This document shows, piece by piece, positions 8,348 through 63,194 of a stretch of DNA of 64,000 bases. Each line of letters begins with the position of its first letter. The first letter of the stretch is position 1. This DNA is from a virus, in IMG/VR virus record IMGVR_UViG_3300045988_054118, positions 1 through 64,000 of that record. The stretch is one strand, 5' to 3'. Below the pieces are notes generated by a model. The model saw only the letters and a program-made list of their open reading frames with translations, had not been told where the DNA came from and searched no databases. The position numbers were made by a program, and so were the translations under genes.

Positions 8348-8364
8348 AACTATTAATTTTGGCG

Positions 8365-14886: not shown

Positions 14887-14893
14887 CTATTAT

Positions 14894-14967
14894 TCTCCCT
14901 TAGCTCAACGGTAGAGCTTTCGACTTTTAATCGAAAGACAAGAGTTCGACTCTCTTAGGGAGAACCA
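14894..14967 (+). tRNA. tRNA-Lys (anticodon TTT), CCA encoded
   Basis: Acceptor TCTCCCT/AGGGAGA, D-stem GCTC/GAGC, anticodon loop CTTTTAA, T-arm AAGAG-TTCGACT-CTCTT, then ACCA. Confidence 0.8.
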
Positions 14968-15519: not shown

Positions 15520-15592
15520 CTGGGTATAGTCGAGTTGGTAAGATGCTACATTTGGGATGTAGAGACCGCAGGTTCGAGTCCTGCTATCCAGA
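15520..15592 (+). tRNA. tRNA-Pro (anticodon TGG)
   Basis: Acceptor CTGGGTA/TATCCAG, anticodon stem CTACA/TGTAG with loop TTTGGGA, T-arm GCAGG-TTCGAGT-CCTGC. Confidence 0.75.
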
Positions 15593-15797
15593 CAAGAAGT
15601 AATCAACATTCACTATTAGTACAGCAATTAGGACTGTAGGGTGCCTTTTAGATGAATCCCTGATTACTCCGATTAACAGAGGCAATGTCCTTAATATCGT
15701 TACCACGCACTGCGGCTATTAGCTGTTAGATGATTTGGGGTGCCAAATGGAAGAACGGTAACAGCTATGTTAATTAGAACGAATCTGTTAATTGTAT

Positions 15798-15880
15798 GGG
15801 AGTGCGCCAACGTTGGAGAGTTGGGCTTGACTGTAAATCAAGTGCCTATGGCTTAGAAGGTTCGAATCCTTCCACTCCCA
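15798..15880 (+). tRNA. tRNA-Tyr (anticodon GTA), class II
   Basis: Acceptor GGGAGTG/CACTCCC, anticodon stem CTTGA/TCAAG with loop CTGTAAA, long variable arm, T-arm GAAGG-TTCGAAT-CCTTC. Confidence 0.75.
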
Positions 15881-15973
15881 CAAATTTAATGAATATGTTA
15901 ATAGGATTTTTAGTATTTATTACTCTAGAAATAGCTATAATAGCTACTATAGGGTTTACTTATTTTCACGAAG

Positions 15974-16345
15974 ATGATAAGAATTTCAAGAATTATCGCA
16001 AAGGAAAGAATAGCTGATTTGTTAGACTTAAATTTCGTGTCTAAGATAGAATTAAGACAGGGAAAACAAGGATTTAATAATCCTGCTATTTGTAGAGTAG
16101 AAATCTATTTACTACTTGAAAACGACAAAGAGTACTTTAACTCCAAAATGACTGATATTATGTCATGGGCACAAAAGAACAAATGTAACATTGCTTTTAC
16201 TACTGCTAGTATGGCTCTCAAAGACGGATTTATTAAAGAATCTGCTTTTGATGACTTTAACTATCCAGTTCCTAAAAAGTATAAGGCATTATGTGATATT
16301 TATTCAGCAAGTTACTTTAATCTATTTAATAGAAGAAAGCTATAA
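15974..16345 (+). CDS. Hypothetical protein
   Basis: ORF of 123 aa. Confidence 0.45.
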   Translation: MIRISRIIAKERIADLLDLNFVSKIELRQGKQGFNNPAICRVEIYLLLENDKEYFNSKMTDIMSWAQKNKCNIAFTTASMALKDGFIKESAFDDFNYPVPKKYKALCDIYSASYFNLFNRRKL

Positions 16346-16502
16346 TGGAAGACAAGTACGAAGGATTATCTGATGAAGAACTTAAAGAGATTTTCGAAGA
16401 TATGGAAGCAGACTATTGGATAGACTACTATCAGTCTCTTTGCGAATGAAACGCAGCAGTTGGCTTTCGGAATCTCTGTCTTAACAAAATGAGTCCGTAA
16501 TT

Positions 16503-16586
16503 GGGATTGTAACCGGTAATTGGTAGCCGCGCAGACTGTAAATCTGCTCTCTTTTGAGACTGGAGGTTCGAGTCCTCCCAATCCCA
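16503..16586 (+). tRNA. tRNA-Tyr (anticodon GTA), second copy, class II
   Basis: Acceptor GGGATTG/CAATCCC, anticodon arm GCAGA-CTGTAAA-TCTGC (identical to E. coli tRNA-Tyr), variable-arm hairpin TCTC-TTTT-GAGA, T-arm GGAGG-TTCGAGT-CCTCC. Confidence 0.7.
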
Positions 16587-17077
16587 CACATTTTAATTAA
16601 TTAGATTATGACAAAAGAAGAAGCAATTAGAGCTATGTCTGAAGGGAAGAAAGTAAGGCATAGATACTTTAGTAAAGACGAATGGGTAACTATAAATTCC
16701 AGCGGACTATATGAGTTCGAGGATGGTATAAAAGTTGACTCATCGTTATTCTGGATGGACAGACAGGATTCCTATTGGAATGATGGATGGAGCTTAGTTT
16801 AACTTTAAATAAGAATAAAAATGACAACGTATGAATACGGAAAAGGATACTTGCCAGAAATCTGGTACTAGTGTAATATTCCAAAAAGAAATTACGCAGT
16901 GTAGGAATGTCCCCATTGTAGAATCGCTCCTGACCCAGACCCTGATGACTGGTTCAATGACGATGATGAAAAAGCGCTTTGTAAAGAAGCTGGAAATAAA
17001 CTAATTGAGGGAATGTTAAGACCTTACGAAAGGGTATTAATTCCAGATTGGTGTCCATTAAAAACTAATAAACAAAA

Positions 17078-17542
17078 ATGAATAGAATTAAGACAAAAGC
17101 CTATCTTGAGGTAACTTTAGAGCAGGCACGCGAATGGTATGAAAGCGGTAATGAAGACTTGAAGAAATTAGCTCTTACTGCATTTAGTGAGGAAATGCTA
17201 ATTCCTTCCTTTAAAGAGATAGTAGAGTCTGAAGAAGATTATGGTTTTTGGAATACATTAGTATGTCCTCCAAGCATGGCAGAACAACTCAGTTCTCTAG
17301 CTAGTTTACAAATAGTTGCTAACTATCTAAATAAAGGATGGATCAAAGCAGAAGGTAATACTGGCTATTTTCTTGGAAAAGGTTCTTCTCTGTCTGGAAA
17401 GACGGAAACTGATATAAAAGGAGTGTACGTCGCCATGCATCAAAATGTAAAGTATCCAGGTGTTGTTTATTTCAGAACTGTAGCTGATGCACAGAAAGCA
17501 GTAAAGATTCTTGGTAAAAAGTTATTGCCATTACTTAAATAA
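17078..17542 (+). CDS. Hypothetical protein
   Basis: ORF of 154 aa. Confidence 0.5.
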   Translation: MNRIKTKAYLEVTLEQAREWYESGNEDLKKLALTAFSEEMLIPSFKEIVESEEDYGFWNTLVCPPSMAEQLSSLASLQIVANYLNKGWIKAEGNTGYFLGKGSSLSGKTETDIKGVYVAMHQNVKYPGVVYFRTVADAQKAVKILGKKLLPLLK

Positions 17543-17548
17543 TTTGAT

Positions 17549-17622
17549 GGTGTTATTAGTTCAGTTGGCAGAACGCTACATTGTGGCTGTAGAGGTCAGC
17601 GGTTCGAGTCCGCTATAACACC
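17549..17622 (+). tRNA. tRNA-His (anticodon GTG) with an encoded G-1
   Basis: An extra 5' G opposite discriminator C; acceptor GTGTTAT/ATAACAC, D-stem GTTC/GAAC, anticodon loop TTGTGGC, T-arm AGCGG-TTCGAGT-CCGCT. Confidence 0.8.
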
Positions 17623-17652
17623 CTAATCATGTTTTATTAAATATTATAACGA

Positions 17653-18213
17653 ATGAAAAAGACAATTGAAATTGAATGTCCAGATGGTTATAAACCCATC
17701 TATAATGCCGAAACTGGCAATGTTGAAATCGTTCCAGAAAACATTATGGGACGGATAAGAACCTATGAGGATGCTGTAAACTATCTAGGGTGTGTTACTA
17801 GAGATACTATTTACTATAATAGATCTGTAAATTCTCTAGCTAAGTTGCAGACAGTCTTGGATGCGCTAAATGAAGGTCACAAGTTCAATCTGTTAACTGG
17901 TACTATATGGTATCCCTGGGTTCGCTTCTTTAGAATGAAATCAGTTCCGAAGGATGCAGAGGTCATTGGTCACTTCCGTTATCAGGGCGAGAAATTCGCG
18001 TTGGTAGGCGGCCGCGCGGATCTTGGCGGCATTGCGGGTCTCGGCTATTTCGTTTCTCGCTTTGGCGTCGGCTTTGCCGCTTCCTATGTCGGGATGCTAG
18101 CGTGCAAATCTGAAGAAATTGCAAAATATGTGTCAACTCAGTTTGGAAAGCTAGTGTTTGATGCTTGTTTTGCAAGACATTTTGAAGGTAGAGAATTTGA
18201 ATGGCTTGACTAA
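17653..18213 (+). CDS. Hypothetical protein containing a ~100-nt GC-rich island (17990-18090)
   Basis: ORF of 186 aa; abrupt local shift in GC content and codon usage, including a GCGGCCGC (NotI) site. Confidence 0.5.
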   Translation: MKKTIEIECPDGYKPIYNAETGNVEIVPENIMGRIRTYEDAVNYLGCVTRDTIYYNRSVNSLAKLQTVLDALNEGHKFNLLTGTIWYPWVRFFRMKSVPKDAEVIGHFRYQGEKFALVGGRADLGGIAGLGYFVSRFGVGFAASYVGMLACKSEEIAKYVSTQFGKLVFDACFARHFEGREFEWLD

Positions 18214-18692
18214 TGAAAAAGTTCCTTGTATTTATGCTTGCTATGCTCTGGATGAGCGTAGCAGCTTTTTCTCAGATAACTATATCACAAGAAGACTATG
18301 ATAAGTTGCCAAGCGATACTAGAACTCAAATTGAGAAGATAACAACAGAGAAAGCTATAAAGGGTGAAATCAAGGAAGTTTCTGAGTATGCAAGTCTCGG
18401 AAAGGAGATTGGAGTTGCAGTAAATGAGACACTAAAAGCAGTTGAAGATTCGGCTATAAGAATATCTGAATCTAATCTAGGACAAACAGCGATAACTATT
18501 GTAGTATGGAAATTACTATATAAGGAGATAGCTGGAGTCGTAATAGGTATACTACTGTTAGGAATATCTCTATTTTTACTAATAACTGGAAGAGGAAAAC
18601 TATCTAAAGACGATGAAGATGCTGGCGGATGGATAAGTGTAGTCGGTGGCGCAGTATTCTTTATTTCTTCTATGATTTGTGTATTTGGCTGA
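18213..18692 (+). CDS. Secreted or membrane-anchored protein (signal peptide plus two C-terminal TM helices)
   Basis: N-terminus MKKFLVFMLAMLWMSVAAFSQ (Bacteroidetes-type SPase I site); C-terminal hydrophobic segments. Confidence 0.55.
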   Translation: MKKFLVFMLAMLWMSVAAFSQITISQEDYDKLPSDTRTQIEKITTEKAIKGEIKEVSEYASLGKEIGVAVNETLKAVEDSAIRISESNLGQTAITIVVWKLLYKEIAGVVIGILLLGISLFLLITGRGKLSKDDEDAGGWISVVGGAVFFISSMICVFG

Positions 18693-18765
18693 GGAGCAGT
18701 CCAGGCTATAGGCTGGTGTATTCTAGCTATATTCTGTGTAATATTGCTTCTTGGTATGATTTTTG

Positions 18766-18788
18766 GCTAGTCATAAGACTAGCTTTTG
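18766..18788 (+). terminator. Rho-independent terminator (GCTAGTC-ATAA-GACTAGC, then TTTT)
   Basis: 7-bp perfect stem, tetraloop, T-tract. Confidence 0.6.
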
Positions 18789-18888
18789 GAAGGGTGGCAG
18801 AGTCAGGTTTAATGTAATCGTAAAGATGAAAATCTAATACAAATTTTGTAAAAATGAACGCTTGGGAAAGTTAGTATAAATCTCATCA

Positions 18889-18959
18889 AGGGAATTTAGG
18901 ACTAGGAAGAGCTATAGCATACTATACTGCTCATTGCATTCCGGTCCTAATTCCCTTGA
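18889..18959 (+). other. Long-range inverted repeat (AAGGGAATTTAGGAC … GTCCTAATTCCCTT) enclosing ~40 nt; candidate structured RNA or regulatory element
   Basis: ~15-bp complementary arms with one bulge, in an intergenic region. Confidence 0.4.
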
Positions 18960-19247
18960 ATGATACATAGAAATATGACATTGTAGTAGATAAAGAGGGT
19001 TTGAAGAGAGTATCAGTTAAAACTACTCAACATTAGGTAAAGAGTGGAAATTATGAAGTCTTGTTGAAGAATTGCGGAGGTTCATCTGGAGATTCTAAGA
19101 TTAGACATTTTGATAATTCTACTTGTGATGTAGTATTTGTAGTAGTTATAACTGGGGACATGTATGAGATTCCCTCAAGTGAAATAAATGTTAAAGGGGC
19201 CTTGACATTAACCAGTGATTGGGATAAATATAAGGTTTCATTATAAT

Positions 19248-19339
19248 GGAGGTATAAGCCTAATTGCTAAGGCAGCAGTCTTGAAAACTGCCAGTAATCG
19301 TGTAACAGCGATGTGTGGGTTGGAGTCCCACTGCCTCCT
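19248..19339 (+). tRNA. tRNA-Ser (anticodon TGA, reads UCA), class II
   Basis: Acceptor GGAGGTA/TGCCTCC, anticodon stem GCAGT/ACTGC with loop CTTGAAA, long variable arm (ATCG…CGAT), T-arm GTGGG-TTGGAGT-CCCAC. Confidence 0.7.
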
Positions 19340-19345
19340 CAATCT

Positions 19346-27451: not shown

Positions 27452-27532
27452 TCCGATTTAGCTCAGTCTGGTTAGAGCGTCCGCATCCAAAACATCAGCG
27501 GGAGGTCAGGGGTTCAAATCCTTTAATCGGAA
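27452..27532 (+). tRNA. Aberrant tRNA: canonical acceptor, D and T arms but a 13-nt anticodon loop (TCCGC-ATCCAAAACATCA-GCGGG)
   Basis: Acceptor TCCGATT/AATCGGA, D-arm GCTC-AGTCTGGTTA-GAGC, T-arm AGGGG-TTCAAAT-CCTTT. The only anticodon stem that can form leaves a 13-nt loop. Confidence 0.45.
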
Positions 27533-27536
27533 CAAT

Positions 27537-27610
27537 CTCGGTGTACCAGAGTGGTTTAATGGCTAGGACTGCAAATCCTTAGTTCGTCAGTTCGAATCTG
27601 ACCACCGAGT
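27537..27610 (+). tRNA. tRNA-Cys (anticodon GCA), second copy
   Basis: Acceptor CTCGGTG/CACCGAG, anticodon stem (T)AGGA/TCCT(T) with loop CTGCAAA, T-arm GTCAG-TTCGAAT-CTGAC. Confidence 0.6.
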
Positions 27611-27616
27611 CAATAT

Positions 27617-27693
27617 AGTGGAGTAGAGAAGTTGGTCATCTCGCTAGGCTCATAACCTAGAAATCGTCATAAACGGTTCGAATCCGAGTGGGG
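27617..27693 (+). tRNA. tRNA-Met-like pseudo-tRNA: intact D-arm and CAT anticodon arm, defective acceptor and T stems
   Basis: D-arm GAGA-AGTTGGTCA-TCTC and anticodon arm CTAGG-CTCATAA-CCTAG are perfect. The 5' AGTGGAG and 3' AGTGGGG are same-sense rather than complementary, and the T stem has only 3 bp. Confidence 0.35.
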
Positions 27694-27723
27694 GATCTTA
27701 ACCATTAAATTAGATTAATTTTT

Positions 27724-28398
27724 ATGACTAGATTAGAAAAGTATTTAGTAGCAACTGCTACTGAGATTATCGAAGCGGAAACAACTGTTTCTCGCTACTT
27801 TGTCATTGGAAACGTCAAAGTTAGAGTATCAGACCATTTAAGTAAAATGAGTGATGCAGACTTACAAGTGATTATTCCATTGAACGGAGGGACTAAGTAT
27901 ATAGTTACTGTTAAGGATAGTCCTGGAAAATTTCTTGTATGGAATGCAACTCAAATAAAAGACTTTATTCCTTCATTGCAGATTATTAAGGGCTTGAAGG
28001 AAGGAGTGCAACTTAAGCCAAAACCTAAAGACTCTGCAGTTCAGAAGATTCAGCTAGCATTAAATAATAGTAATACCGATGGAGGTTCGTTAACGTTTGA
28101 TGGTACTATTATTGAGTCTAGATTGAAAGAAAAGCAACTTACTTCCAAACAGCGGGAAGTTTTCAGGAGAACTAAATCTACTTGGGATATTTCTCAGATT
28201 GGGACATTACCCAGTATGATTAAAGTAGATTTAGGATTGTCAAATGGTTCTGTAAACGAAGATGTGCAGATATTTCTAACTTGTACATCTTTAACCTACA
28301 AAGAAATTCTGAACATTTATAAAATAATAGTTGTTGATAACCGTATGGTTCCAACTATTAAACTGTTGCAAGAAGCTTATAGCTTGATTGTGCAGTAG
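27724..28398 (+). CDS. Hypothetical protein; the only plus-strand gene here that ends in TAG (read-through would add 6 aa before TAA)
   Basis: ORF of 224 aa ending …LIVQ-TAG; a TAA follows 18 nt later, inside the 5' edge of tRNA-Glu. Confidence 0.5.
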   Translation: MTRLEKYLVATATEIIEAETTVSRYFVIGNVKVRVSDHLSKMSDADLQVIIPLNGGTKYIVTVKDSPGKFLVWNATQIKDFIPSLQIIKGLKEGVQLKPKPKDSAVQKIQLALNNSNTDGGSLTFDGTIIESRLKEKQLTSKQREVFRRTKSTWDISQIGTLPSMIKVDLGLSNGSVNEDVQIFLTCTSLTYKEILNIYKIIVVDNRMVPTIKLLQEAYSLIVQ

Positions 28399-28401
28399 GA
28401 T

Positions 28402-28473
28402 AGCGCCATCATCTAATGGTTAGGATTCAGGCTTTTCACGCCTGCCATACGGGTTCGAATCCCGTTGGCGTTA
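28402..28473 (+). tRNA. tRNA-Glu (anticodon TTC)
   Basis: Acceptor AGCGCCA/TGGCGTT (one G·U), anticodon stem CAGGC/GCCTG with loop TTTTCAC, T-arm ACGGG-TTCGAAT-CCCGT. Confidence 0.7.
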
Positions 28474-28480
28474 CTATGTA

Positions 28481-28514
28481 CCCCAGCAGCGAAAGTTGTT
28501 GGGGTATTTTTTGT
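28481..28514 (+). terminator. Rho-independent terminator (CCCCAGC…GTTGGGG, then TATTTTTTG)
   Basis: 7-bp GC-rich stem followed by a 6-T tract; closes the tRNA cluster. Confidence 0.7.
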
Positions 28515-28524
28515 TTAATTTAAT

Positions 28525-28851
28525 TTGTGTTTAATGCGAAAAACATTTGAATTTGTAAAAGTGGGAGGAGTCTGGTTTTATTGGTGGCCAGACTTCGATG
28601 GAGACCCAGGAGAGTTGGCTATGGTTGGCGGGGCTGACGATCTTCTTGATTCTCTTGATGATAGATTTGTTAGGTTGCAGATGGTTGACCCTTCTGTAGC
28701 TAAGATTGTTCTATCTAAGATTGAAGAAGATGAGAATGGAGCTACTTACTTGTGTAAAAGTAAGAATTATAACGATAGAGTTTGGATTTGTCCAGTAACT
28801 CTACTAGTATTTAACGAATATCCTCAAAACATTTATTTGTCTGAATTATAA
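28525..28851 (+). CDS. Hypothetical protein
   Basis: ORF of 108 aa. Confidence 0.45.
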   Translation: MCLMRKTFEFVKVGGVWFYWWPDFDGDPGELAMVGGADDLLDSLDDRFVRLQMVDPSVAKIVLSKIEEDENGATYLCKSKNYNDRVWICPVTLLVFNEYPQNIYLSEL

Positions 28852-29300
28852 TGAAAACATTAGATGAAATCGTAAACAATTACGAAGAATGGTCTGTATT
28901 TCTTGACGATAGATTTGGAGTTAGATTAGCTCAATTTCTGACACAGGAACAGTTAGAGAAAATAGGTTTTAAGTGGAATAGTGATGAACCTTATCCTGAA
29001 CCCAAAGAGTGGACTAGAGAGAATATTCTTTCCCAACTTAAAGAAGATGTAGAGTTCGGATTTGAAAAAGCCCTTGACAAGAGAGGTATTTCTGCAAGTC
29101 TGATGTTTGCTGTAGTTCTTAGATGGAATAGAGTTCTTGAGGAAGGCTTGGAGGATTATCCAGAGGATAACTATGCTATGTATTTGCCATTATTTAAGGC
29201 TACTGCGGAAAAGTATGGCTGGGAGAATCCTATCGGAGATGATAGTGGAAGCGAGGACTATTATAACGAAGAGTATGATGAAGGATTGTACTGCGATTAA
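28851..29300 (+). CDS. Hypothetical acidic protein
   Basis: ORF of 149 aa. Confidence 0.5.
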   Translation: MKTLDEIVNNYEEWSVFLDDRFGVRLAQFLTQEQLEKIGFKWNSDEPYPEPKEWTRENILSQLKEDVEFGFEKALDKRGISASLMFAVVLRWNRVLEEGLEDYPEDNYAMYLPLFKATAEKYGWENPIGDDSGSEDYYNEEYDEGLYCD

Positions 29301-29466
29301 AGTCATTGCCGAAGCTCTGGAAGAATATGAAAATAATTTCAACCATAAGATAAATATCTTAGAAAGCAAGATTATTCTCTATGAAAAGGAGAGAAAAGCT
29401 ATTATAAGACATCTTAAGGAAGGGAATATAGAATTATTAAAGAGTTATTTTGGAATTGAAAAATGA
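29275..29466 (+). CDS. Small coiled-coil protein (start placed at an internal Met of track ORF 29137..29466)
   Basis: The 5' half of the track ORF overlaps the previous gene in another frame; the downstream part is protein-like (…IKVIAEALEEYENNFNHKINILESKIILYEKERKAIIRHLKEG…). Confidence 0.3.
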   Translation: MMKDCTAIKVIAEALEEYENNFNHKINILESKIILYEKERKAIIRHLKEGNIELLKSYFGIEK

Positions 29467-29623
29467 AGGAATACTACCTGATTAAGTGCAGAAATAATAT
29501 CCCATTCATTATAGGTCAGTATGATACCGAAGAAGATGCCAGGAAGGCGAAGAATCGTGAGAATCCTAATTCCGAGCTTATGATAGTAGTTAACATAGAA
29601 AAGGATAAGCCTGAGAAAACATC

Positions 29624-29920
29624 ATGATTACTGAGATTTCATACGATAAGGACTTATTAGGAAAGGAAGTTAGGGGTACAAATACTTCCTACTGGGGTAT
29701 ATCAGCTTTACAGGCAGGCCACGATGACATCCGCCAAGATATTTCAAAATATTTATTTAGAGACTGTGTGGTAGATAGTGGACATAAAGGGATAATTATA
29801 GGGTTCGAAGATAATAACCAATTCTTTGATTACTATTATATAGTCTATGTCCCAGAACTTGATAAAGTTGTTTATCAACTATGTAATGATGCAAGATTTA
29901 TTAATTCTATTGAGATATGA
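29624..29920 (+). CDS. Hypothetical protein
   Basis: ORF of 98 aa. Confidence 0.45.
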   Translation: MITEISYDKDLLGKEVRGTNTSYWGISALQAGHDDIRQDISKYLFRDCVVDSGHKGIIIGFEDNNQFFDYYYIVYVPELDKVVYQLCNDARFINSIEI

Positions 29921-30414
29921 AAAAGAGAGTTTTAATTATTTTAATGATTAGTATTGTATTCGGATTTGCAACTGGTTATTCCTTGCACCACTGGATACAT
30001 TCTGCGAGGTTTCCAGAGGAGAAAATTATGCTGATGCCGGAACATCCATTCTATTTGATGGAGGAGGTGAATGAGGAAGTATTGTATAATACTCTTAAAC
30101 ACTATGATTTCCCAAGTCCTGCTATCATAACAGCTCAGGCTATTCTAGAATCTGGTAACTTCAAGTCTAAACTTTGTAAGGACAACAATAATTTGTTCGG
30201 ATTGTATAATTCAAGAACGATGTCCTATTTCAAGTTTGACAGTTGGATAAGCTGTGTATTTGCTTATAAGCAATTTATTCTAAGTAGGTACGATCCAGAA
30301 GAGGACTATTATAGGTTCCTAGATAGGATTGGATATGCTGAAGATTCTCTATATGAGAGTAAAGTTAAAGAATTAGAGTTAGATATTATTAACAAGTATG
30401 GAAGCCCAGATTGA
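29917..30414 (+). CDS. Membrane-anchored peptidoglycan hydrolase (GH73 / FlgJ-type N-acetylglucosaminidase domain); endolysin candidate
   Basis: N-terminal TM or signal anchor MKKRVLIILMISIVFGFATGYS; motif AQAILESGNF…NNLFGL typical of the glucosaminidase (PF01832) family. Confidence 0.6.
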   Translation: MKKRVLIILMISIVFGFATGYSLHHWIHSARFPEEKIMLMPEHPFYLMEEVNEEVLYNTLKHYDFPSPAIITAQAILESGNFKSKLCKDNNNLFGLYNSRTMSYFKFDSWISCVFAYKQFILSRYDPEEDYYRFLDRIGYAEDSLYESKVKELELDIINKYGSPD

Positions 30415-30619
30415 AAAGGCTATTAAGCTTAGAAAACAAGCTAACTTTAAGATTTTAACTAGACTAGCTCAAATCATAGAATGCAGTCCGCATTTGCGAT
30501 TCCAGCAAATATTATCCAATTACAAAGTCTGTGAATTAGGTAAGGATAAGTTCTATGAAGAGAGTATAGAAACTCTTAGGAATTTAGAAGGAGAAATGAA
30601 CAAAAAGTTGAACACTTAA
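30398..30619 (+). CDS. Hypothetical small protein
   Basis: ORF of 73 aa. Confidence 0.4.
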   Translation: MEAQIEKAIKLRKQANFKILTRLAQIIECSPHLRFQQILSNYKVCELGKDKFYEESIETLRNLEGEMNKKLNT

Positions 30620-30629
30620 TAGATTTAAA

Positions 30630-31121
30630 ATGGAATTTAAGAATTTTAAGAAAGATGTAGAAGCTGCTTTCAATAATATGATTGCAGAAAATCTGTTTGT
30701 TGCTAATGTTGATAAAGACCTCCTTTGGATGGGCTATCTTCTGTCGTTTGAGGACGAAACTATTAGACAAGACCATAACTGCAATGCCTGTAAATCTTTT
30801 ATCCGGCATTAGATTGACCCTCAAACGTATAAGGTTAAAACATTCTGGGATGATGTGCACACTCCTGGATATGAGAAAACAGCACAGGCTTTAGCTAAAT
30901 TAGTTAAGGCAGCTGGAATAGGAGACGTCTTTATTCAAGATGTGAACGAATTTCATGGTTGTGACCATAATGTTCAACTACTTCCTGATGGAACAACTAG
31001 GACTTGGACGCATCTGTATGTAACTATTCCGAATAACTTCAAGTTCAACAAACGAGTTCATGGTTTCGACTCTGCTGCTGGTTACAGAGGAGATGTTAGA
31101 GCAAGAGCCGGGGGTATTTGA
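30630..31121 (+). CDS. Hypothetical protein with a single in-frame TAG at 30810-30812; track ORFs 30630..30812 and 30855..31121 are one frame
   Basis: Both track ORFs are in frame 0. The 42 nt between them translate protein-like (IDPQTYKVKTFWDDV), and the second ORF's apparent M is a GTG codon within the continuous frame. Confidence 0.5.
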
Positions 31122-32631
31122 ACGCTCCATCAGCGAGCTTAAGCTAGAGGCAGTTGAAACTGTTATTGAGCTTATAGAAGGAAATAATCTCTATAGAGGT
31201 GCAGAGTTCTTGAAGAGTTTGGAGGAATTTAGAAGAACACTAGTTACTGCTCAAACTCTGAGTCCAGAAGTAAGAACTAACTATTGCTGGTTAAACTTTA
31301 AGTCTCCTATAGCTAAGATTAGAAATACGGCTATGGGAACTTTACTTATTGACCTAAGTAATGGTGTAGATTTGGAGAGAGCCGTAAGAGCATATGAAAA
31401 CATCATGGCTCCTGCTAACTATAAGAGACCTACTGCTCTTATTACTAAGAAGCAAATTGAAGCTGCTCAGAAGAAGGTAGAAGAGCTGGGTCTTACTGAT
31501 GCACTTCCTCGTCGTCACGCTCACGTAGAAGATATTTCTGTGAATGATGTTCTATTCGTAAATAGAGATACTAGAGCAAAGATGAAGGGAGGAATGTTTG
31601 ATATGCTCTCTGAGACTTCTACAGTAAATCCAAAAGAGTTTACCAAAGCCCAAGAAGTTTCTGCTGATGCCTTTGTCAAGAATGTACTTCCAGGAGCTAA
31701 GGAGGTTTCTATCTTGGTAGAGAACAGACATATTCCCAACTTTGTTACTCTGACTGCTCCTGAAAATCCGGATGCTGGACAGTTGTTTAAGTGGAATAAC
31801 AACTTTGCTTGGGTTTATAATGGTTCTGTAGCCGATTCCTTCAAGGAGAAGGTAAAGGCTGCTGGTGGAAATGTAGACGGTTTCATGAGATGCTCTCTTC
31901 ACTGGTTTAACTATGATGACCTTGACCTTCATGTAACCGAACCTGGTGGAAGAGAAATCTATTATGGAAGCAAAACTGGTTATACTGGAGGAACTCTTGA
32001 TGTTGACATGAATGCAGGTTCCGGAAAAACTAGAGATGCTGTTGAGAACATCATATGGACAGACCCTAGCAGACTAAGACCGGGAGATTATGTGGTAAGA
32101 GTGCATAACTTCTATAAGAGGGAAAGTATTGATTTTGGTTTCGAAATGGAAATCGAGATTAATGGAGAACTTCACAAATTCCAGTATGGAAAAGTAGTTC
32201 TGAGCAAGGAATACATTGAAGTTGCTCGTATCCATGTTGATGGACAAAGAAACATTTCCATGACTCCTACTATTAAAGAGGGTTCTACATCGTTCAAATC
32301 TACTAACGAGTGGGGAATTGATACAATGAAATTCCAGAAGGTTTCTTGTATTATGTTCTCTCCTAATCATTGGGAAGGCAACGCTATAGGAAACAAGCAT
32401 CTGTTCTTTATGATAGATGGATGCAAGAATCCAGACCCTGTTAGAGGTTTCTTTAATGAATATCTGAGAGCTGACCTTGAAAAGGAGCATAGAAGAGTGT
32501 TTGAAGCTCTTGGTTCTAGAGCAAAAGCTGAGTACAGTGATGACCAGTTGAGTGGATTGGGATTTTCTAGCACATCACACAATGATGTTGTTGTAAAAGT
32601 TGATAATAAATCATTTAAAATCATTTTCTAA
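31060..32631 (+). CDS. Large hypothetical protein (523 aa); its 5' end overlaps the previous gene by 62 nt in the +1 frame
   Basis: Long ORF; no confident family assignment from motifs. Confidence 0.55.
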   Translation: MVSTLLLVTEEMLEQEPGVFERSISELKLEAVETVIELIEGNNLYRGAEFLKSLEEFRRTLVTAQTLSPEVRTNYCWLNFKSPIAKIRNTAMGTLLIDLSNGVDLERAVRAYENIMAPANYKRPTALITKKQIEAAQKKVEELGLTDALPRRHAHVEDISVNDVLFVNRDTRAKMKGGMFDMLSETSTVNPKEFTKAQEVSADAFVKNVLPGAKEVSILVENRHIPNFVTLTAPENPDAGQLFKWNNNFAWVYNGSVADSFKEKVKAAGGNVDGFMRCSLHWFNYDDLDLHVTEPGGREIYYGSKTGYTGGTLDVDMNAGSGKTRDAVENIIWTDPSRLRPGDYVVRVHNFYKRESIDFGFEMEIEINGELHKFQYGKVVLSKEYIEVARIHVDGQRNISMTPTIKEGSTSFKSTNEWGIDTMKFQKVSCIMFSPNHWEGNAIGNKHLFFMIDGCKNPDPVRGFFNEYLRADLEKEHRRVFEALGSRAKAEYSDDQLSGLGFSSTSHNDVVVKVDNKSFKIIF

Positions 32632-32633
32632 TT

Positions 32634-33008
32634 ATGTTTAAACAAGCGTCAAAAATGAAGTTGCGTTTCGCAACTAGTAAAGGTAATCTGAGTGTAGAAG
32701 ATTTGTGGGACTTGAGCCTGCCAGTATTGGATAAATTAGCCGTTTCTTACGATGAGGAACTAGCTAAAAGTCCAAGAAAGTCTTTCATAACTAATGATAC
32801 TCCCAGCAATACCGAACTTGAATTGAAGTTCAATATTGTGAAGGAGATTATAACGGATAAGCTAAAAGAGAAGGCTGATAGAGAGACAGCTAAGAATAAG
32901 GCTGCTGAAAAGGCTCGCCTGACGGAACTGTTAGCTAAGAAACAATCTGAGAAGTTAGAAAGCTTGTCCGAAGATGAAATCAAACGGAGACTCGCCGAAC
33001 TCGGATAA
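32634..33008 (+). CDS. Hypothetical protein
   Basis: ORF of 124 aa. Confidence 0.45.
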   Translation: MFKQASKMKLRFATSKGNLSVEDLWDLSLPVLDKLAVSYDEELAKSPRKSFITNDTPSNTELELKFNIVKEIITDKLKEKADRETAKNKAAEKARLTELLAKKQSEKLESLSEDEIKRRLAELG

Positions 33009-33288
33009 TTGTGTCGTATTGAAAACAGTTAGTCCACAAATCTTAGATAAACTAAGAGAAAGTGGATTGACTGTTTGTACGTGTTGTGAATTTCCTGGTA
33101 CAGCCTGGTTAGTATTCAGACCAAATATGCCTACATCGGATATTCACGGTGAGGGGTATGACTTCGAAGAGATAGGACTTTTTGGAACAGAGGCCGTTCT
33201 CAAATACTTCGAAGCTAACACTCCGAATTATGTAGATTGCGGAACTGATGTCGATAAATTTATTAACATTTGTTTGCAGTTTAAATAA
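32974..33288 (+). CDS. Hypothetical protein
   Basis: ORF of 104 aa. Confidence 0.4.
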   Translation: MKSNGDSPNSDNCVVLKTVSPQILDKLRESGLTVCTCCEFPGTAWLVFRPNMPTSDIHGEGYDFEEIGLFGTEAVLKYFEANTPNYVDCGTDVDKFINICLQFK

Positions 33289-33374
33289 GTTAACGGTTTT
33301 TAACTTTGAATTTAACACTTGTACTGTTATTATAGTAAGTTGATTAGCGGTACGTGAGTATAGCTAATCACTAT

Positions 33375-33460
33375 GCCCGAATGGTGGAATTGGTAGACAC
33401 GTCAGATTTAAGCTCTGATGCCCAGTAATGGGCGTGTGGGTTCGAGTCCCACTTCGGGTA
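33375..33460 (+). tRNA. tRNA-Leu (anticodon TAA), class II
   Basis: Acceptor GCCCGAA/TTCGGGT, anticodon stem TCAGA/TCTGA with loop TTTAAGC, long variable arm, T-arm GTGGG-TTCGAGT-CCCAC. Confidence 0.7.
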
Positions 33461-33651
33461 CTAATTTAATATCAATAATATGGAAAGATATATAGAAGAA
33501 CTTATTGAAATATATAGAAAAAATACTCTAAAGTCAGATGAAGAATTAGAATCTCTGAAGAGTTTACTTAGAAATGTTCATCGTGATGGATTTATAGCAG
33601 GAGAAGAATCAATAATTAATGTTGTGGATAAACTAACAAAACGTAACTAAT

Positions 33652-38380: not shown

Positions 38381-38695
38381 ATGGACGTAAAGATTATGTT
38401 GATAAGTGATTGTATAGGAGTTGTGCTCTATGCGCTCCTATACTATACACTTTATCATACCTATGAACTAGATTATTTAGGTTCTGGAAGGTGGAGAAGG
38501 TGGAGAAGAATATCTGTGCCTGGTTGGGCTGTAGTTATAGCCCTAGTGAGCCTATGTCTTCCTCCTGTAGCTGTCTCGCTTTCTATAGTAAGCTGGATTA
38601 TATATATGCTTAAGTTTCTCGGCGATAAATATTACGAGGTAGACGTTTCTTTTATTAAGTTTTTATCAAACTCAATACATGACACGAATATTTAA
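38381..38695 (+). CDS. Small membrane protein; contains a tandem 9-bp repeat (GGTGGAGAA x2) encoding RWRRWRR
   Basis: Two TM segments. Confidence 0.4.
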   Translation: MDVKIMLISDCIGVVLYALLYYTLYHTYELDYLGSGRWRRWRRISVPGWAVVIALVSLCLPPVAVSLSIVSWIIYMLKFLGDKYYEVDVSFIKFLSNSIHDTNI

Positions 38696-39191
38696 ACATC
38701 TAATTAGGATTATTAAGCATAAATACTGGGTAGCACACTATTGTTTCCAGTTAGGTCTTTATTGGCAGGGAATAGTACATGACTGGTCTAAGTTTAGCTA
38801 TACTGAATTTAGTAGGTCAATAAAGTACTGGGACGATACTATTAGTCCTCTAGCTAATGAGAAAAACATACACGGATATTCTGAAACCTTCCTACATCAT
38901 CGAGGAAGAAATCCACATCACTATGAATATTGGGTTCATAGTTTAGATGAAGGAGGAGTTCCAGCGAAAATGCCAAGAAAATATGCTTTGGAATTAGTCT
39001 GTGATTATCTGGCTGCTGGGAGAACCTATAATAAAGATTTTACCTATGGGAGTGAGTACAACTGGTGGATTAAATTTCTAAGTTCACCTAGAGCTATACA
39101 CTCAGAAACCAAGGACTTCGTAACTAAATGCTTTAGGCATTTGAGTGCCGGAGGTAATATTAAATATTTATTGAAAATTGACTATGAGTAA
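38679..39191 (+). CDS. Hypothetical His-rich protein (possible metal-dependent hydrolase)
   Basis: H-rich motifs VHDWSK and HHRGRNPHHYEYWVH. Confidence 0.4.
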   Translation: MTRIFKHLIRIIKHKYWVAHYCFQLGLYWQGIVHDWSKFSYTEFSRSIKYWDDTISPLANEKNIHGYSETFLHHRGRNPHHYEYWVHSLDEGGVPAKMPRKYALELVCDYLAAGRTYNKDFTYGSEYNWWIKFLSSPRAIHSETKDFVTKCFRHLSAGGNIKYLLKIDYE

Positions 39192-40002
39192 GATAATAGG
39201 GCAAGACAAGTTAATTAAGGAAGTTAATAGAATATTTCAGGTATTTGTAAATAGTAATTGCAAGATGAGACCGCACTTTATTCTTACAGGCGAGAGCGGG
39301 TCTGGTAAGAGCTTTACTATTAAACAGTTGTGTGATATGAATGAACTTAACTTTCTAGAAGTTAATGCAGCTCAAATAACTAAAGAGGGTATTTCTGGAA
39401 ATAGTTTAAGCAAAATTCTATCTCCACTTATTAACTATAGTCACACACCTATTGTAGTCTTCGTAGACGAGTTTGATAAACTTTTCATCAACGGAAACAC
39501 TAATAGCCAACTGGCTAATGAATCTACTGCCAGTGTACAGAATGAGTTTCTCAAACTTTTAGAGTCTGATACTACTAGTGTTTTTGGCGATTATGGGAAG
39601 TATATATCAGTCCCTATTGATAATGTACTATTTGTGTTTGCCGGAGCCTTCAATAATGAGCCTCACATTACATTAGATAGACTAAGAGACTTTGGAGTTA
39701 AAACAGAGTTTCTTGGAAGAGTAGGATTAATCTACAATACTAAACCTCTCACTCTAGAGGATTTGTATTCTATTTTGGAGTGTTCAGACTTGTTGCAGAA
39801 TTATCTTGACTTATTCTTTAATGTAAATAGAGAACAAGTCATTAGTGATTTGAAAGGGTATCTCGAAAGTTCTTTTCGCAATAATACTCTTGGAGCAAGA
39901 ACAATTAATACTCTTATTCACCAATACTTTATCAAAGGTGGAAAACTTGAAACTGAAGAAGTAAAAGAAATAACTTTTAACAAAAAATTAGAATGGAAAT
40001 AA
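39178..40002 (+). CDS. ClpX/HslU-like AAA+ ATPase domain protein (no zinc finger)
   Basis: Walker A GESGSGKS, Walker B VVFVDEFDKLF, and ClpX-like segments VQNEFLKLLE and VLFVFAGAF. Confidence 0.6.
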   Translation: MTMSKIIGQDKLIKEVNRIFQVFVNSNCKMRPHFILTGESGSGKSFTIKQLCDMNELNFLEVNAAQITKEGISGNSLSKILSPLINYSHTPIVVFVDEFDKLFINGNTNSQLANESTASVQNEFLKLLESDTTSVFGDYGKYISVPIDNVLFVFAGAFNNEPHITLDRLRDFGVKTEFLGRVGLIYNTKPLTLEDLYSILECSDLLQNYLDLFFNVNREQVISDLKGYLESSFRNNTLGARTINTLIHQYFIKGGKLETEEVKEITFNKKLEWK

Positions 40003-41543
40003 TTAATGCTACAGATGGTTACAAATTGGGCCATCACAGAATGTACCCCGAAGGTACTGAACAAGTTTATAGTAACTGGACTCCTAGAAGTAACAAGTAC
40101 TTTCCAGAAGCTACCGAAGGTTCTGTAGTATTCGGAATCCAATATTTAATTAAAAAGTATTTGATCGACGAATTTAATAAGAATTTCTTTGTATTGCCTA
40201 AAGAGAAAGCTATAGAAATGTTTTATCGGAGAGTCCACAACTTCGTTGGAATTGAGTCCGTGGGATATAGACATATTGAGGCTTTGTATGATTTAGGATA
40301 TCTCCCTATTCGTATTAAAGCGTTGCCAGAAGGTTCAGTATGTCCTATTAGAGTTCCTATGATGACTATTACTAATACGAAACCAGAGTTCTTTTGGTTA
40401 ACTAATTATCTAGAGACTTTGATTAGTTGTACTTTGTGGATGCCTTGTACCTCTGCCACTAGAGCAAGACTCTATAAGAAAGAACTCAAAAGACACTCAG
40501 TACACACTGGATTTCCGGAGGATGTAAACCTGGATTTCTTGTGTCATGACTTCTCTATGAGAGGAATGGCTGGTTTGGAAGCGTCTGTTATTTCTGGTAT
40601 GGCTCATATGACTTCATTTGTAGGAAGTGAAACTATTCCTGCTATTGCAGCTCTTGAAGAGTATTATGGAGCTAATTCGGATAGTGAATTAATTGCTGCT
40701 ACTGTTCCGGCTACTGAACATTCGGTAATGTGTGCAGGAGGAGAAGAGGACGAGTTAGGAACATATAAACGTCTTATTAATGAGTTATATCCTACTGGGT
40801 TTGTTTCTATTGTATCTGATACTTGGGATTTCTGGAATGTAATTGAAAATTTCTTGCCTAAGCTGAAGAAAGACATTATGGCTCGTGATGGTAGAGTAGT
40901 AATCCGTCCTGATAGTGGAGACCCAGTAGATATAATCTGCGGGTTGAGAACTAATCCTCACTTCAATACCAGAATGAAAGAAGGTAAGTATTATTGCTGC
41001 TATGCTCCGTTTAACGACGATGCAGAGTATGTTGAAGTGTCCGAAGGTCAATATTATGGGGCATATTATATGCTTGGTAAAATCTTCGGATGGAATACTA
41101 CTTCAAAGGATTACCGCTATCCTAGCACTAAGGTTGGTCTGCTTTATGGAGATTCTATTACTCTAGAACGTCAAAAGCAAATCTACTTGAGATTAGAAAA
41201 CGCTCATATGGCGGCTTGTAATCTCGTTCTGGGAGTAGGTTCATATTCCTATCAGTATGCAAGTAGAGATAGTCTTGGGTTTGCTATTAAGGCTACTGCT
41301 TGCGTAGTAAATGGCGAGTTGAAAGAAATCTTCAAACATCCTAAAACTGATGATGGTACTAAGAACTCTTTGAAAGGTTTGATTGCTGTCTATAAAGGTC
41401 TGGATGGGAAGTATACTGCTACCGACCAGGTCTCAATCGAGGAAGAAAAAGAGGGATGCTTAGAGACTGTCTTTGAAGATGGTATCTTGAAGAAAGAATA
41501 TTCTCTTGAAGAAATCAGACAAAGAATTGACCATGGACTTTAA
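39993..41543 (+). CDS. nadV: Nicotinamide phosphoribosyltransferase family protein (Nampt/NadV-like; may instead be the nicotinamide-ADP-ribose transferase Namat of NARP1)
   Basis: 516 aa; N-terminus INATDGYKLGHHRMYPEGTEQVYS and overall length typical of NadV/Nampt. Confidence 0.65.
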   Translation: MEIINATDGYKLGHHRMYPEGTEQVYSNWTPRSNKYFPEATEGSVVFGIQYLIKKYLIDEFNKNFFVLPKEKAIEMFYRRVHNFVGIESVGYRHIEALYDLGYLPIRIKALPEGSVCPIRVPMMTITNTKPEFFWLTNYLETLISCTLWMPCTSATRARLYKKELKRHSVHTGFPEDVNLDFLCHDFSMRGMAGLEASVISGMAHMTSFVGSETIPAIAALEEYYGANSDSELIAATVPATEHSVMCAGGEEDELGTYKRLINELYPTGFVSIVSDTWDFWNVIENFLPKLKKDIMARDGRVVIRPDSGDPVDIICGLRTNPHFNTRMKEGKYYCCYAPFNDDAEYVEVSEGQYYGAYYMLGKIFGWNTTSKDYRYPSTKVGLLYGDSITLERQKQIYLRLENAHMAACNLVLGVGSYSYQYASRDSLGFAIKATACVVNGELKEIFKHPKTDDGTKNSLKGLIAVYKGLDGKYTATDQVSIEEEKEGCLETVFEDGILKKEYSLEEIRQRIDHGL

Positions 41544-41970
41544 TCATCCTTTTGGGAAAGAAGCTTGCAAGAAACGACTATTAGAAGAGTATCATAAATA
41601 CAGAAAGCTAATAGTCGCTTTCGATTTTGATAATACTATTTTCGATTACCATAATACTGGCGGAGATTATAGTTGCGTTATAGAACTACTTAAAGAATGC
41701 TCACTTCTAGGTTTTGAAATGATTTTATTCACCACTGATGAAGATGATTATAAAATTATGGCAAAGCAGACAATTTGTATGCGATTAGGAATAGCAAATA
41801 TTACTTCTAATACTTTATCTGCTCCAAACATTAGTAGTTCTATATTCTCTAAATCTAAGAAACCTTATTACAATATCCTCCTAGATGATAGGGCAGGTCT
41901 AGAAGAAAGTTATGAAATCTTAAAATATGTAGTAGATGAAATTAAACTTAATCAACAAGGAAATCAGTGA
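41506..41970 (+). CDS. HAD-superfamily hydrolase-like protein
   Basis: DxDxT motif (VAFDFDNTIFDY) near the N-terminus. Confidence 0.45.
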   Translation: MKKSDKELTMDFNHPFGKEACKKRLLEEYHKYRKLIVAFDFDNTIFDYHNTGGDYSCVIELLKECSLLGFEMILFTTDEDDYKIMAKQTICMRLGIANITSNTLSAPNISSSIFSKSKKPYYNILLDDRAGLEESYEILKYVVDEIKLNQQGNQ

Positions 41971-42745
41971 AATTAAGTACGATGTTACTAGATTTCCTGA
42001 TGGAGAGCCTCAGTTTTTCCTTACTGAGGAATTAAACAGAAAGGAATCTATTGATGTCATTTGTAGAATATCTAATACTGAGGATTTATTTCTCTTAATG
42101 CAAGTAGGAGATATTTTAGATAGACAAGAAGTAGAATGGGATTTACACATTACTTATTTAATGTCTATGCGTATGGATAGAGTAATGAGTTTTAATCGTC
42201 CATTCTCCTTGAAAGTAGTATGTAATATGTTAAATAGCTTAGGCTATAGAAACATATATGTTCTTGAGGCACATTCTAGTAGAACTTTTCATCTTCTTGG
42301 TGACAGATGTTTACCTTGGGAATTTGGACACCATTCTTGGATTCCAGCCCAAAGTAATATCGTGTTCCCAGACCATGGGGCGAAGGACAGATATGGAAGT
42401 AACTATTCTCACTATGGTTATTTAGTCTTCAAAAAGGAAAGAAATCTAGAGACTGGAAGAATTGAGTCCTTTGAAATAGAGGAGTCTAAGAATTGCTACT
42501 ATTCTACATTTGTGTTCATTGATGACTTGTGTGATGCTGGAGGAACTTTCCTAGGAGAGCTTAAGGTTCTCAAAGAGAGATATCCAAATAGCAAGTTTAT
42601 CATAATCGTATGTCATGCAGTTAATGATAAAGGCCTGGTTAATATGTGTAATAATTTTGACCAGGTTATTGTATCTAATTCTCATAGGGATATTAATTAT
42701 CGTCCCAGCAACGAGAACTTAACTGTAATAGACGTTTGTAAATAA
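41936..42745 (+). CDS. prs: Ribose-phosphate pyrophosphokinase family protein (Prs-like; may instead be the ADP-ribose pyrophosphokinase Adps of NARP1)
   Basis: PRPP-binding motif FVFIDDLCDAGGT (compare VIIVDDIIDTGGT); 269 aa. Confidence 0.55.
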   Translation: MKLNLINKEISEIKYDVTRFPDGEPQFFLTEELNRKESIDVICRISNTEDLFLLMQVGDILDRQEVEWDLHITYLMSMRMDRVMSFNRPFSLKVVCNMLNSLGYRNIYVLEAHSSRTFHLLGDRCLPWEFGHHSWIPAQSNIVFPDHGAKDRYGSNYSHYGYLVFKKERNLETGRIESFEIEESKNCYYSTFVFIDDLCDAGGTFLGELKVLKERYPNSKFIIIVCHAVNDKGLVNMCNNFDQVIVSNSHRDINYRPSNENLTVIDVCK

Positions 42746-62341: not shown

Positions 62342-62643
62342 TAAGAAAATTTACTAACATCGTTTGTGTATATTACAACGACAAAAATTATATTCCAGCT
62401 AAGTATAATTGTCCAGACCTAGAGATTGATGATGTAATTCTCAACCTAACTACAAACAAGGAACAGAATTATGAAAAGATTTCTGAGATTATTGTTGATT
62501 ATGCCTTTGCTTTGTTCTGTAACAAATCTGATTTAAAAGATTTTTCACAAGACCTTAAGAAGTATAAGAGGCAGAACTGGAAATTGCTCGACTTTAGGGA
62601 AATAATTAAAACAACAGAGATAAAACCAAAAGATCAGAAATGA
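62338..62643 (+). CDS. Hypothetical protein
   Basis: ORF of 101 aa. Confidence 0.4.
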   Translation: MIRKFTNIVCVYYNDKNYIPAKYNCPDLEIDDVILNLTTNKEQNYEKISEIIVDYAFALFCNKSDLKDFSQDLKKYKRQNWKLLDFREIIKTTEIKPKDQK

Positions 62644-63194
62644 AATATGGAGTTATTTTAGCTAGGTTTCAGCCCATTCACAATGGGCACCTAGCTTTAA
62701 TTAAAAAAGCTTGTTCAGAGAACGATAAGGTTCTTTTGTTAGTTGGTAGTGCTGATAAAGTAAACAAGCGTAATCCTATTCCTATAAAGGTTAGGATAAA
62801 ATTACTAGAAACTGCCTTAGAGGACGAAGGTTTACTTAGTAGATGTATCATTCAACCTCTTAATGATTTGACTGATGAGTCTGATAACTCTCAGGATTGG
62901 GGATTCTATTTATATGCTAACATAGTTAGTATTATAAAAGAGTCCCATTTTAATATCTACTATAGCGATGGATACGAAATTATTACAACATGGTTTCCAA
63001 AGTTTATGCTGAAGGGTTATATATCAATGACTCTCATGGCAAGAGAACAGGTAGAAGAAGGTATATCGGCTACTGTTGTAAGAGATGCCCTAAGATCTAA
63101 TTTAAGCCTAGAAGGACTAGTTCCTAAGTGTGTTATAGATGCAAGATTTTATTTAACTGAATTTATTTTATTACATGAAAGTACTCATAATTAA
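62640..63194 (+). CDS. nadM: Nicotinamide-nucleotide adenylyltransferase (NadM-type NMNAT)
   Basis: N-terminal signature [17 protein letters not shown] (compare GRFQPFHKGH of NadM/NMNAT); 184 aa. Confidence 0.65.

Follow-up and report, generated by a model that had tools for sequence, protein, structure and literature searches.

A putative three-gene NAD+ reconstitution operon with Namat, a HAD-type phosphatase and Adps in an uncultured crAss-like phage

Positions 39993-42745 of a 64,000-nucleotide stretch of viral DNA (hereafter the window; positions 1 to 64,000 of the IMG/VR record IMGVR_UViG_3300045988_054118) probably constitute a three-gene operon for the reconstitution of nicotinamide adenine dinucleotide (NAD+) in an uncultured crAss-like phage, with the gene order Namat, HAD phosphatase and Adps. 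NAD+ depletion is among the commonest antiviral strategies of bacteria, and phages counter it most often by NAD+ reconstitution pathway 1 (NARP1). As established for the NARP1 family, a defence NADase would cleave NAD+ into ADP-ribose (ADPR) and nicotinamide, Adps would move pyrophosphate from ATP onto ADPR to form ADPR-PP, and Namat would couple ADPR-PP with nicotinamide to give NAD+ and pyrophosphate (PPi), enabling phage replication. The Namat and Adps of the window almost certainly represent NARP1, and the HAD protein between them is best read as an accessory phosphatase supporting this pathway, a putative non-homologous counterpart of the Macro-domain phosphatase Adpp. The predicted genes of the module are as follows.

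39993-41543, + strand: Namat (nicotinamide ADP-ribose transferase), Nampt family, 516 amino acids, predicted enzyme 2 of NARP1
41533-41970, + strand: capless (C0-type) HAD-superfamily phosphatase, 145 amino acids, conserved accessory of the module; alternative TTG start at 41506
41936-42745, + strand: Adps (ADP-ribose pyrophosphokinase), Prs-like, 269 amino acids, predicted enzyme 1 of NARP1

Neighbouring genes from the AAA+ gene (see below) to Adps overlap by 10-35 nucleotides, indicating one tight operon. The start of the HAD gene is most likely the ATG at 41533, which gives 145 residues, rather than the TTG at 41506, because its homologues are 143-145 residues long.

By its clamp motifs and its closest relatives, the 516-residue Nampt-like protein is a Namat and not a Nampt. 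Family scans matched it to PF04095 and PF18127 and to NF006629 at 525 bits. A search against the PDB sequences returned the Namat of SPbetaL1 (PDB 9W5X/9W5W) as the best solved relative with 495 bits, compared with about 224 bits for human NAMPT, and blastp gave 466 bits (48% identity) to SPbetaL1 Namat versus 177 bits (28.5%) to the NARP2-type, T4-like Nampt of phT4A. The defining trait of Namat is a selectivity clamp, which binds ADPR-PP by its adenine and comprises a helix motif, with the consensus GS-X-phi-X-phi-X-phi-TRD in which X is aromatic, and a loop with a stacking residue (PMC12774641). The helix was judged by aromatic X at positions 3 and 7, and the loop by Arg at position 3, or by Lys/Tyr followed by a stacking residue at position 4. 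The helix of the window protein, GSYSYQYASRD, has Tyr at positions 3, 5 and 7 and Ser instead of Thr before RD, and its loop, SNKY, is of the Bas63 type, represented by SDKW in the Felix O1-like phage REP5. The NARP2-type Nampt, by comparison, reads GGGLLQEVTRD at the helix and has no equivalent loop. The catalytic core of SPbetaL1 Namat is kept (D13, Y15, F189, R192, the catalytic His, R306, D308, G360 and D361) with the sole exception of the nicotinamide-contacting Asp215 (Asp219 in human NAMPT), which is Glu at residue 213 of the window protein. The same exchange occurs in cr126_1 and DAC15, in which GSETIP replaces GTDTIP.

The 269-residue Prs-like protein, as far as its sequence features tell, is an Adps and not a Prs. 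On the Prs model TIGR01251, whose cutoff is 113 bits, it scored 59 bits, compared with 106 for SPbetaL1 Adps, 127 for REP5 Adps and 423 for E. coli Prs. An independent Adps profile, drawn from six NARP1 operons outside the crAss-like group and without a linked HAD gene, gave the window protein 144 bits and E. coli Prs 111. A neighbour-joining tree placed the protein inside Adps, which is weak evidence given the single outgroup. The features of the Adps family are known from the structure of ICP1 Adps (PMC13586617). Its catalytic and acceptor residues R87, H121, D161, K185, D212, D213 and D216 correspond to R79, H113, D146, K167, D196, D197 and D200 of the window protein, and F18 corresponds to F20. 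In the remodelled PP loop and donor lid, C215 and F221 of ICP1 are matched by C199 and F205, positions occupied by Ile and by Leu/Ile in the true Prs of E. coli and Mucilaginibacter. Moreover, the window protein lacks the alpha11-alpha12 module found at the C-terminus of true Prs; it ends one residue past the C-terminus of ICP1 Adps, whereas E. coli Prs runs 22 residues on. Phe92, an adenine contact of ICP1 Adps, is Met84 in the window, and this non-conserved position (Glu in SPbetaL1, Met in REP5) is non-diagnostic. The loop that binds phosphoribosyl pyrophosphate (PRPP) is present as claimed in the initial annotation, and its sequence, FVFIDDLCDAGGT, only approximates the motif VxxVDDxxDxGGT quoted there. 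The Namat gene lies two genes upstream of the Adps gene in the same operon, where a distance of up to ten genes served as the criterion.

The genes and families listed in the initial annotation agree with the open reading frames and the family scans, and its suggestion of a NARP1 counter-defence pair is borne out by the clamp, the PP loop, the C-terminal truncation and the profile scores. Both placements that it had left to be settled, Nampt versus Namat and Prs versus Adps, fall on the NARP1 side. The two-gene core as such is already known: the homologues of DAC15, cr126_1, BPS10C and Zuko are listed as Namat-associated Adps, and those of cr126_1 and Lak-B7 as Adps-associated Namat, in the supplementary tables of the discoverers of NARP1, who therefore counted close relatives of the window pair as NARP1. 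The characterised systems of SPbetaL1, Bas63, ICP1 and Fado (bioRxiv 10.1101/2024.02.11.579819; PMC12774641; PMC13586617) consist of the same two enzymes in one operon and share with the window the Namat clamp as well as the catalytic, PP-loop and truncation features of Adps. The window differs from them in its reversed order with Namat first, in the HAD gene that sits between the two and overlaps both, in the Glu at the position of Asp215, and in an Adps that is more divergent on the Prs model.

Annotation pipelines call the two genes Nampt and Prs, SPbetaL1 Namat keeps about half of the activity of human Nampt with PRPP in vitro, and the same phage has a probable NMN adenylyltransferase (NMNAT), all of which would suit ordinary NAD+ or nucleotide salvage. 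Here, NadV would make nicotinamide mononucleotide (NMN) from PRPP supplied by the phage Prs, the distant NMNAT would finish NAD+, and the HAD gene would be an unrelated gene of nucleotide metabolism. This explanation is highly improbable, considering that both proteins carry the features specific for Namat and Adps and that the Prs-like protein scores far below true Prs and below the cutoff of the Prs family. In addition, SPbetaL1 Adps gave no product in the published Prs-activity control, from which its authors concluded that it is not a Prs. The NMNAT is uncoupled from the module beyond a close clade, and the linkage of the HAD gene is far too consistent for chance, as described below.

The NMNAT in question is encoded at some distance:

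62640-63194, + strand: stand-alone NMNAT-like nucleotidyltransferase, 184 amino acids

It matches PF01467, and the motifs HxGH (HNGH, residues 14-17) and SxTxxR (SATVVR) are intact. All its best solved relatives are NMNATs of the archaeal, NadM or NadR kind, led by MJ0541 at an E-value of 1e-9, in line with the NadM-type label of the initial annotation, and the gene probably encodes a real NMNAT. It stays below the family cutoff (57 bits against 127) and has no Nudix domain. It lies 20 kb from the module among ribonucleotide-reductase and dUTPase genes. Co-occurrence of NMNAT and module was found in 47 of 51 contigs of the close clade of the window, in none of 26 more distant module-bearing phages and in none of 19 distant NMNAT-bearing contigs; the NMNAT is not evolutionarily coupled to the module. 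The window resembles NARP2, the pathway of Nampt and a bifunctional Nmnat/Nudix enzyme in Vibrio phage KVP40, in having a Nampt-family and an NMNAT-like gene, and Namat is able to make NMN from PRPP in vitro. NARP2, which the window had also been proposed to encode, was nevertheless rejected, as the sole Nampt-family gene is of the Namat type and the NMNAT, 20 kb off and devoid of a Nudix domain, is inherited together with the module only in the close clade. NARP3 combines a PnuC-like transporter with a NadR-like bifunctional enzyme (PMC13464706), and tblastn with PnuC and NadR queries gave no match in the window at an E-value below 1e-6. Possible roles of the NMNAT would be to complete NAD+ from NMN made by residual activity of Namat on PRPP, or to re-ligate NMN left by Metis-type cleavage of NAD+.

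The third protein of the module has the four catalytic motifs of the HAD superfamily (DxDxT, S/T, K and DD), which are intact, invariant among its homologues and set on a Rossmann-like HAD fold, and the structure model shows a confident capless HAD fold. A sequence search against the PDB gave no significant match, and Foldseek of the model against the PDB returned BT_0820 as the sole match. Its structural matches in BFVD are only uncharacterised phage HADs, with proteins annotated as 5'-nucleotidases among the weak ones. Pfam and NCBIfam scans of 22 members of the HAD family found no family with a characterised substrate. On NF046079, the model of the BT0820 family, the window protein scored 20.7 bits against a curated cutoff of 165, and 20 of the 22 members matched weakly. 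Membership of the BT0820 family was therefore rejected, and the HAD family is related to it but distinct; a literature search on BT0820 found nothing relevant. No paper linking NARP1 with a HAD protein was found either, and the conserved HAD accessory is a new element, undescribed in the literature searched.

The association of the HAD gene with Adps and Namat was surveyed in 77 viral loci from IMG/VR and in 80 bacterial loci, mainly from Flavobacteriia, Saprospiraceae, Cohnella and Paenibacillus. Three viral loci end at a contig edge just beyond the HAD gene and are not assessable. The other 74 comprise 71 full trios, two loci with HAD and Adps only, and a single unlinked HAD copy (L088), so that HAD adjoins Adps in 73 of 74. 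Among the bacterial loci, HAD is linked in 61, with the orders Adps-HAD-Namat (21 loci), Namat-HAD-Adps (22), HAD-Adps-Namat (10) and Namat-Adps-HAD (5) and with partial arrangements in three; the remaining 19 have HAD alone with no NAD gene within 5 kb. Cultured phages show three arrangements. The order is Namat-HAD-Adps in crAss-like phages and Adps-Namat-HAD in Bacillus Herelleviridae, and Lak megaphages (MK250021 and others; L005, L006) have HAD and Adps side by side with Namat about 225 kb away, so that HAD keeps company with Adps rather than Namat. A higher-GC phage (L086, counted among the trios) has Adps-HAD-Namat. The survey thus yielded at least five gene orders, in phages of the crAss-like, Bacillus and Lak groups and in Bacteroidota and Bacillota chromosomes. 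That the genes have remained together through repeated changes of order indicates functional coupling, and the HAD protein is very probably tied to the NARP1 pathway. The extra HAD step raised in the initial annotation corresponds to this conserved third component.

Alternatively, the HAD gene could be a mere passenger, nearby through shared descent alone and with no functional tie to NARP1. The 19 bacterial loci with HAD alone and the unlinked viral copy could be taken in this sense. The neighbours of those 19 are heterogeneous and uninformative, and in the unlinked viral copy the second of the catalytic Asp residues is gone (DFGNT). Given also that the trio stays intact through the reshuffled orders in Crassvirales, Herelleviridae, Lak phages and the chromosomes of two bacterial phyla, and that the Lak HAD remains with Adps despite the distance to Namat, a passenger gene is very unlikely indeed.

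A functional tie of the HAD protein to NARP1 leads to the question of its substrate. The closest precedent for the HAD gene is a phage response to RES-domain defence proteins (aRES). Their cleavage of NAD+ yields nicotinamide and ADPR-1''-phosphate, a compound that is no substrate for Adps, and some phages insert the Macro-domain phosphatase Adpp in the NARP1 operon, which regenerates ADPR (bioRxiv 10.64898/2026.01.28.702374). By analogy, the HAD protein would strip phosphate from a phosphorylated ADPR to give ADPR, the sole substrate that Adps accepts; candidate substrates are ADPR-1''-phosphate, as made by RES-type NADases, the 2'-phospho-ADPR that NADP+ would give, or a compound formed when ADPR-PP breaks down. 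That the HAD protein acts on a phospho-ADPR is proposed tentatively, at somewhat less than even chances. Its position in the operon is consistent with the analogy. NARP1-AP of Vibrio phage Gary (same preprint) likewise has three genes with an embedded phosphatase, and its order, Adps, Adpp and Namat, equals that of the HAD version in L086 and the 21 bacterial loci. In contrast to NARP1-AP, the phosphatase of the window is a capless HAD with a fold unrelated to the Macro domain and with a putative substrate, and the same HAD family is also found beside canonical Prs and Nampt.

A Pfam Macro domain had no match in the module or its neighbours, and a Macro-Adpp profile found nothing in the 64 kb window or any HAD locus, where the positive control reached 195 bits and the sensitivity of the seven-sequence profile is limited; a hidden Macro-Adpp elsewhere in the window was rejected on this empty search. 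The two phosphatases also differ in their hosts, the HAD form occurring in phages of Bacteroidota and Bacillota and Macro-Adpp in phages of Gammaproteobacteria. Table S1 of the aRES preprint mentions Macro-Adpp for 72 Pseudomonas and 40 Vibrio phages and for no Bacillus, Staphylococcus, Listeria, Mycobacterium or Escherichia phage, so that the published list is confined to phages of Gammaproteobacteria. According to the same preprint, aRES is present in 10.4% of the genomes of Bacillota, where it is most frequent, and in 4.7% of those of Bacteroidota, the host phyla of the HAD-bearing phages. A further-reaching version is rather unlikely but worth stating: the HAD may have evolved independently of Macro-Adpp, define a widespread three-gene form of NARP1 that dominates the phages and chromosomes of Bacteroidota and Bacillota, and return phospho-ADPR to the pool of Adps.

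Accessories that extend the substrate range of NARP1 have recently been described, namely Macro Adpp for ADPR-1''-phosphate and RyDEP for cyclic ADPR. RyDEP accompanies NARP1 in mycobacteriophage DyoEdafos (bioRxiv 10.64898/2026.05.28.727677) and is likewise an inserted accessory that could supply ADPR. It differs in being a RyR-domain glycosidase of another fold that acts on Thoeris signals, converting cyclic ADPR to ADPR, whereas the motifs of the HAD indicate hydrolysis of phosphomonoesters. If the proposed role holds, NARP1 would have gained a third accessory, of unrelated fold, and its extension would prove to have evolved repeatedly, the NAD+ arms race would reach the abundant crAss-like and Lak phages of the human gut, and these phages could escape NAD+ depletion of the RES type. 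Should the NMNAT also re-ligate NMN, the phage would hold repair routes for three chemically different modes of NAD+ destruction.

Several points weigh against this account. The HAD family reaches no family of known substrate, leaving its phosphatase role a prediction from motifs and fold. The exchange of the nicotinamide-contacting Asp215 for Glu in the Namat of the crAss-like clade is a departure that may bear on base specificity. Many of the viral loci are near-identical and the independent lineages are far fewer than the locus counts, so that lineages and gene orders, and not raw locus numbers, provide the independent weight. Nearly a quarter of the bacterial HAD loci (19 of 80) have no NAD gene within 5 kb. 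Furthermore, the HAD family is not exclusive to the ADPR route. It ends a canonical operon in Mucilaginibacter (L213, L214, L219, L221), where it comes after genes for an NrtR-like protein, an NMNAT of the NadM kind, a Nampt lacking the clamp (GGALLQKVDRD) and a true Prs (189 bits), and it likewise follows canonical NAD salvage genes in L244, L209 and L222. Across all typed loci, 111 partners are of the Namat type and seven, all bacterial, of the Nampt type, which makes 94% of them ADPR-specific. The presence of the HAD beside Prs and Nampt suggests a possible role common to the PRPP and ADPR-PP routes and argues against a dedicated ADPR-1''-phosphate phosphatase.

One such common role would be the removal of a shared product rather than the preparation of a substrate. 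The target of hydrolysis would be PPi, a product of Namat, Nampt and NMNAT, or AMP, a product of Adps and Prs, and its removal would drive the reactions towards completion or lift product inhibition. AMP at 500 uM lowers ICP1 Adps to about 35% residual activity (PMC13586617). Both products are common to the two routes beside which the HAD gene occurs, the weak structural matches to annotated 5'-nucleotidases would suit a nucleotide substrate, and HAD-family inorganic pyrophosphatases such as BT2127 exist. Capless HADs, on the other hand, typically take bulky substrates and usually prefer them over PPi, a trait that also suits the analogy with Adpp. Pyrophosphatase is already abundant in cells, and destruction of AMP would waste adenylate during infection. 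With 94% of the typed partners being ADPR-specific as well, product removal is judged unlikely, if clearly less so than a passenger gene or ordinary salvage. Another possible role shared by both routes is the removal of an anomeric 1-phosphate from 5-substituted ribose. An accessory phosphatase that supports NARP1 is still the best reading of the HAD protein, although its occurrence beside canonical Prs and Nampt weakens a strict analogy with Adpp.

Bacterial NAD salvage clusters associated with the NrtR family, of the nadV-prs-nadM type, were reportedly described by Rodionov and colleagues in 2008. A bacterial NARP1 is also known from Paenibacillus foliorum (PMC12774641). In bacterial chromosomes, the same HAD family sits in operons with Adps and Namat and less often with Prs and Nampt, and an NrtR-like gene, from a family of ADPR-responsive repressors, lies nearby in 43 of the 80 HAD loci (L177-L241). 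Genes for an NrtR-like regulator, PnuC and NadR are all missing from the phage version. No mention of the HAD gene of these bacterial operons was found in the literature searched. The NrtR-like neighbours suggest that the chromosomal trio is a regulated operon for recycling ADPR, from which the phage versions may derive. Paenibacillus psychroresistens (L220, 4181-9372) has NrtR-like, HAD, Adps, Namat, PnuC and NadR genes in a row. A gene for a polynucleotide kinase of the Pnkp family, which includes an HAD-type phosphatase domain, directly follows Namat in the NARP1 operon of Mycobacterium phage Bromden (L167, 4048-4986), and it may be either a coincidence or a further phosphatase accessory.

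Two genes precede the module in the window:

38679-39191: DUF5662 gene, overlapping the start of the AAA+ gene
39178-40002, + strand: AAA+ ATPase, 274 amino acids

As listed in the initial annotation, the AAA+, Nampt-like, HAD-like, Prs-like and NMNAT-like reading frames are all present on the + strand. The AAA+ protein had been called ClpX-like, and weak matches to ClpX and HslU do exist, but identity with ClpX was rejected for a protein of 274 residues that scores 64 bits against the ClpX cutoff of 359; it falls in phrog_5534, whose function is unassigned. The gene occurs in 16 of the 77 related viral loci and is absent from all other lineages. It is missing from phages with an HAD 98-100% identical to that of the window, DUF5662 then abutting Namat, and others, with an HAD of no more than 67-68% identity, carry it at 96-98% identity. 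A role of the AAA+ gene as a component of the system was rejected on these grounds, since it behaves as an independent presence/absence cassette between DUF5662 and Namat that does not track relatedness, which suggests recent horizontal movement into a hotspot. DUF5662 directly precedes Namat in 47 of the 77 viral loci and does so in crAss-like contigs only, and was for this reason rejected as a fourth component.

A phage 99% identical to the window (L007, Logan SRR19378445) has a 2.1 kb deletion of about 39507-41599 in which Namat is lost, and the N-terminus of the AAA+ protein is fused in frame to the C-terminus of the HAD, followed by an intact Adps. Three such AAA-HAD fusion proteins were found in public assemblies (P0005, P0006, P0008). 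These natural deletion variants indicate that the module is dispensable, as expected of counter-defence genes. Microhomology at the junction of the L007 deletion was considered and rejected, the 15-nucleotide overlap in blastn being no true repeat. PADLOC models gave merely weak generic matches.

The window includes 19 tRNA genes, with a tRNA array at 14815-33461, and two tRNAs with the anticodon CTA (amber suppressors) at 8364-8436 (- strand) and 10704-10777 (+ strand). No gene of the module has TAG as its stop codon, and its gene calls are thus unaffected by the amber-suppressor tRNAs. A TAG stop was found in one of 70 long + strand reading frames, which together with the CTA tRNAs fits the avoidance or recoding of TAG that has been reported in some crAss-like phages.

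The module is 95% identical to the human-faecal phage contig MT836666, and the Namat region shares about 71% nucleotide identity with the Bacteroides phages DAC15 and DAC17. The remainder of the window has hardly any nucleotide match among deposited phage genomes. Within the stretch 12046-12165, where ARAGORN called no tRNA, about 110 nucleotides form a conserved element that is 94-99% identical in several otherwise unrelated crAss-like genomes (cr109_1, cr53_1, cr118_1 and others).

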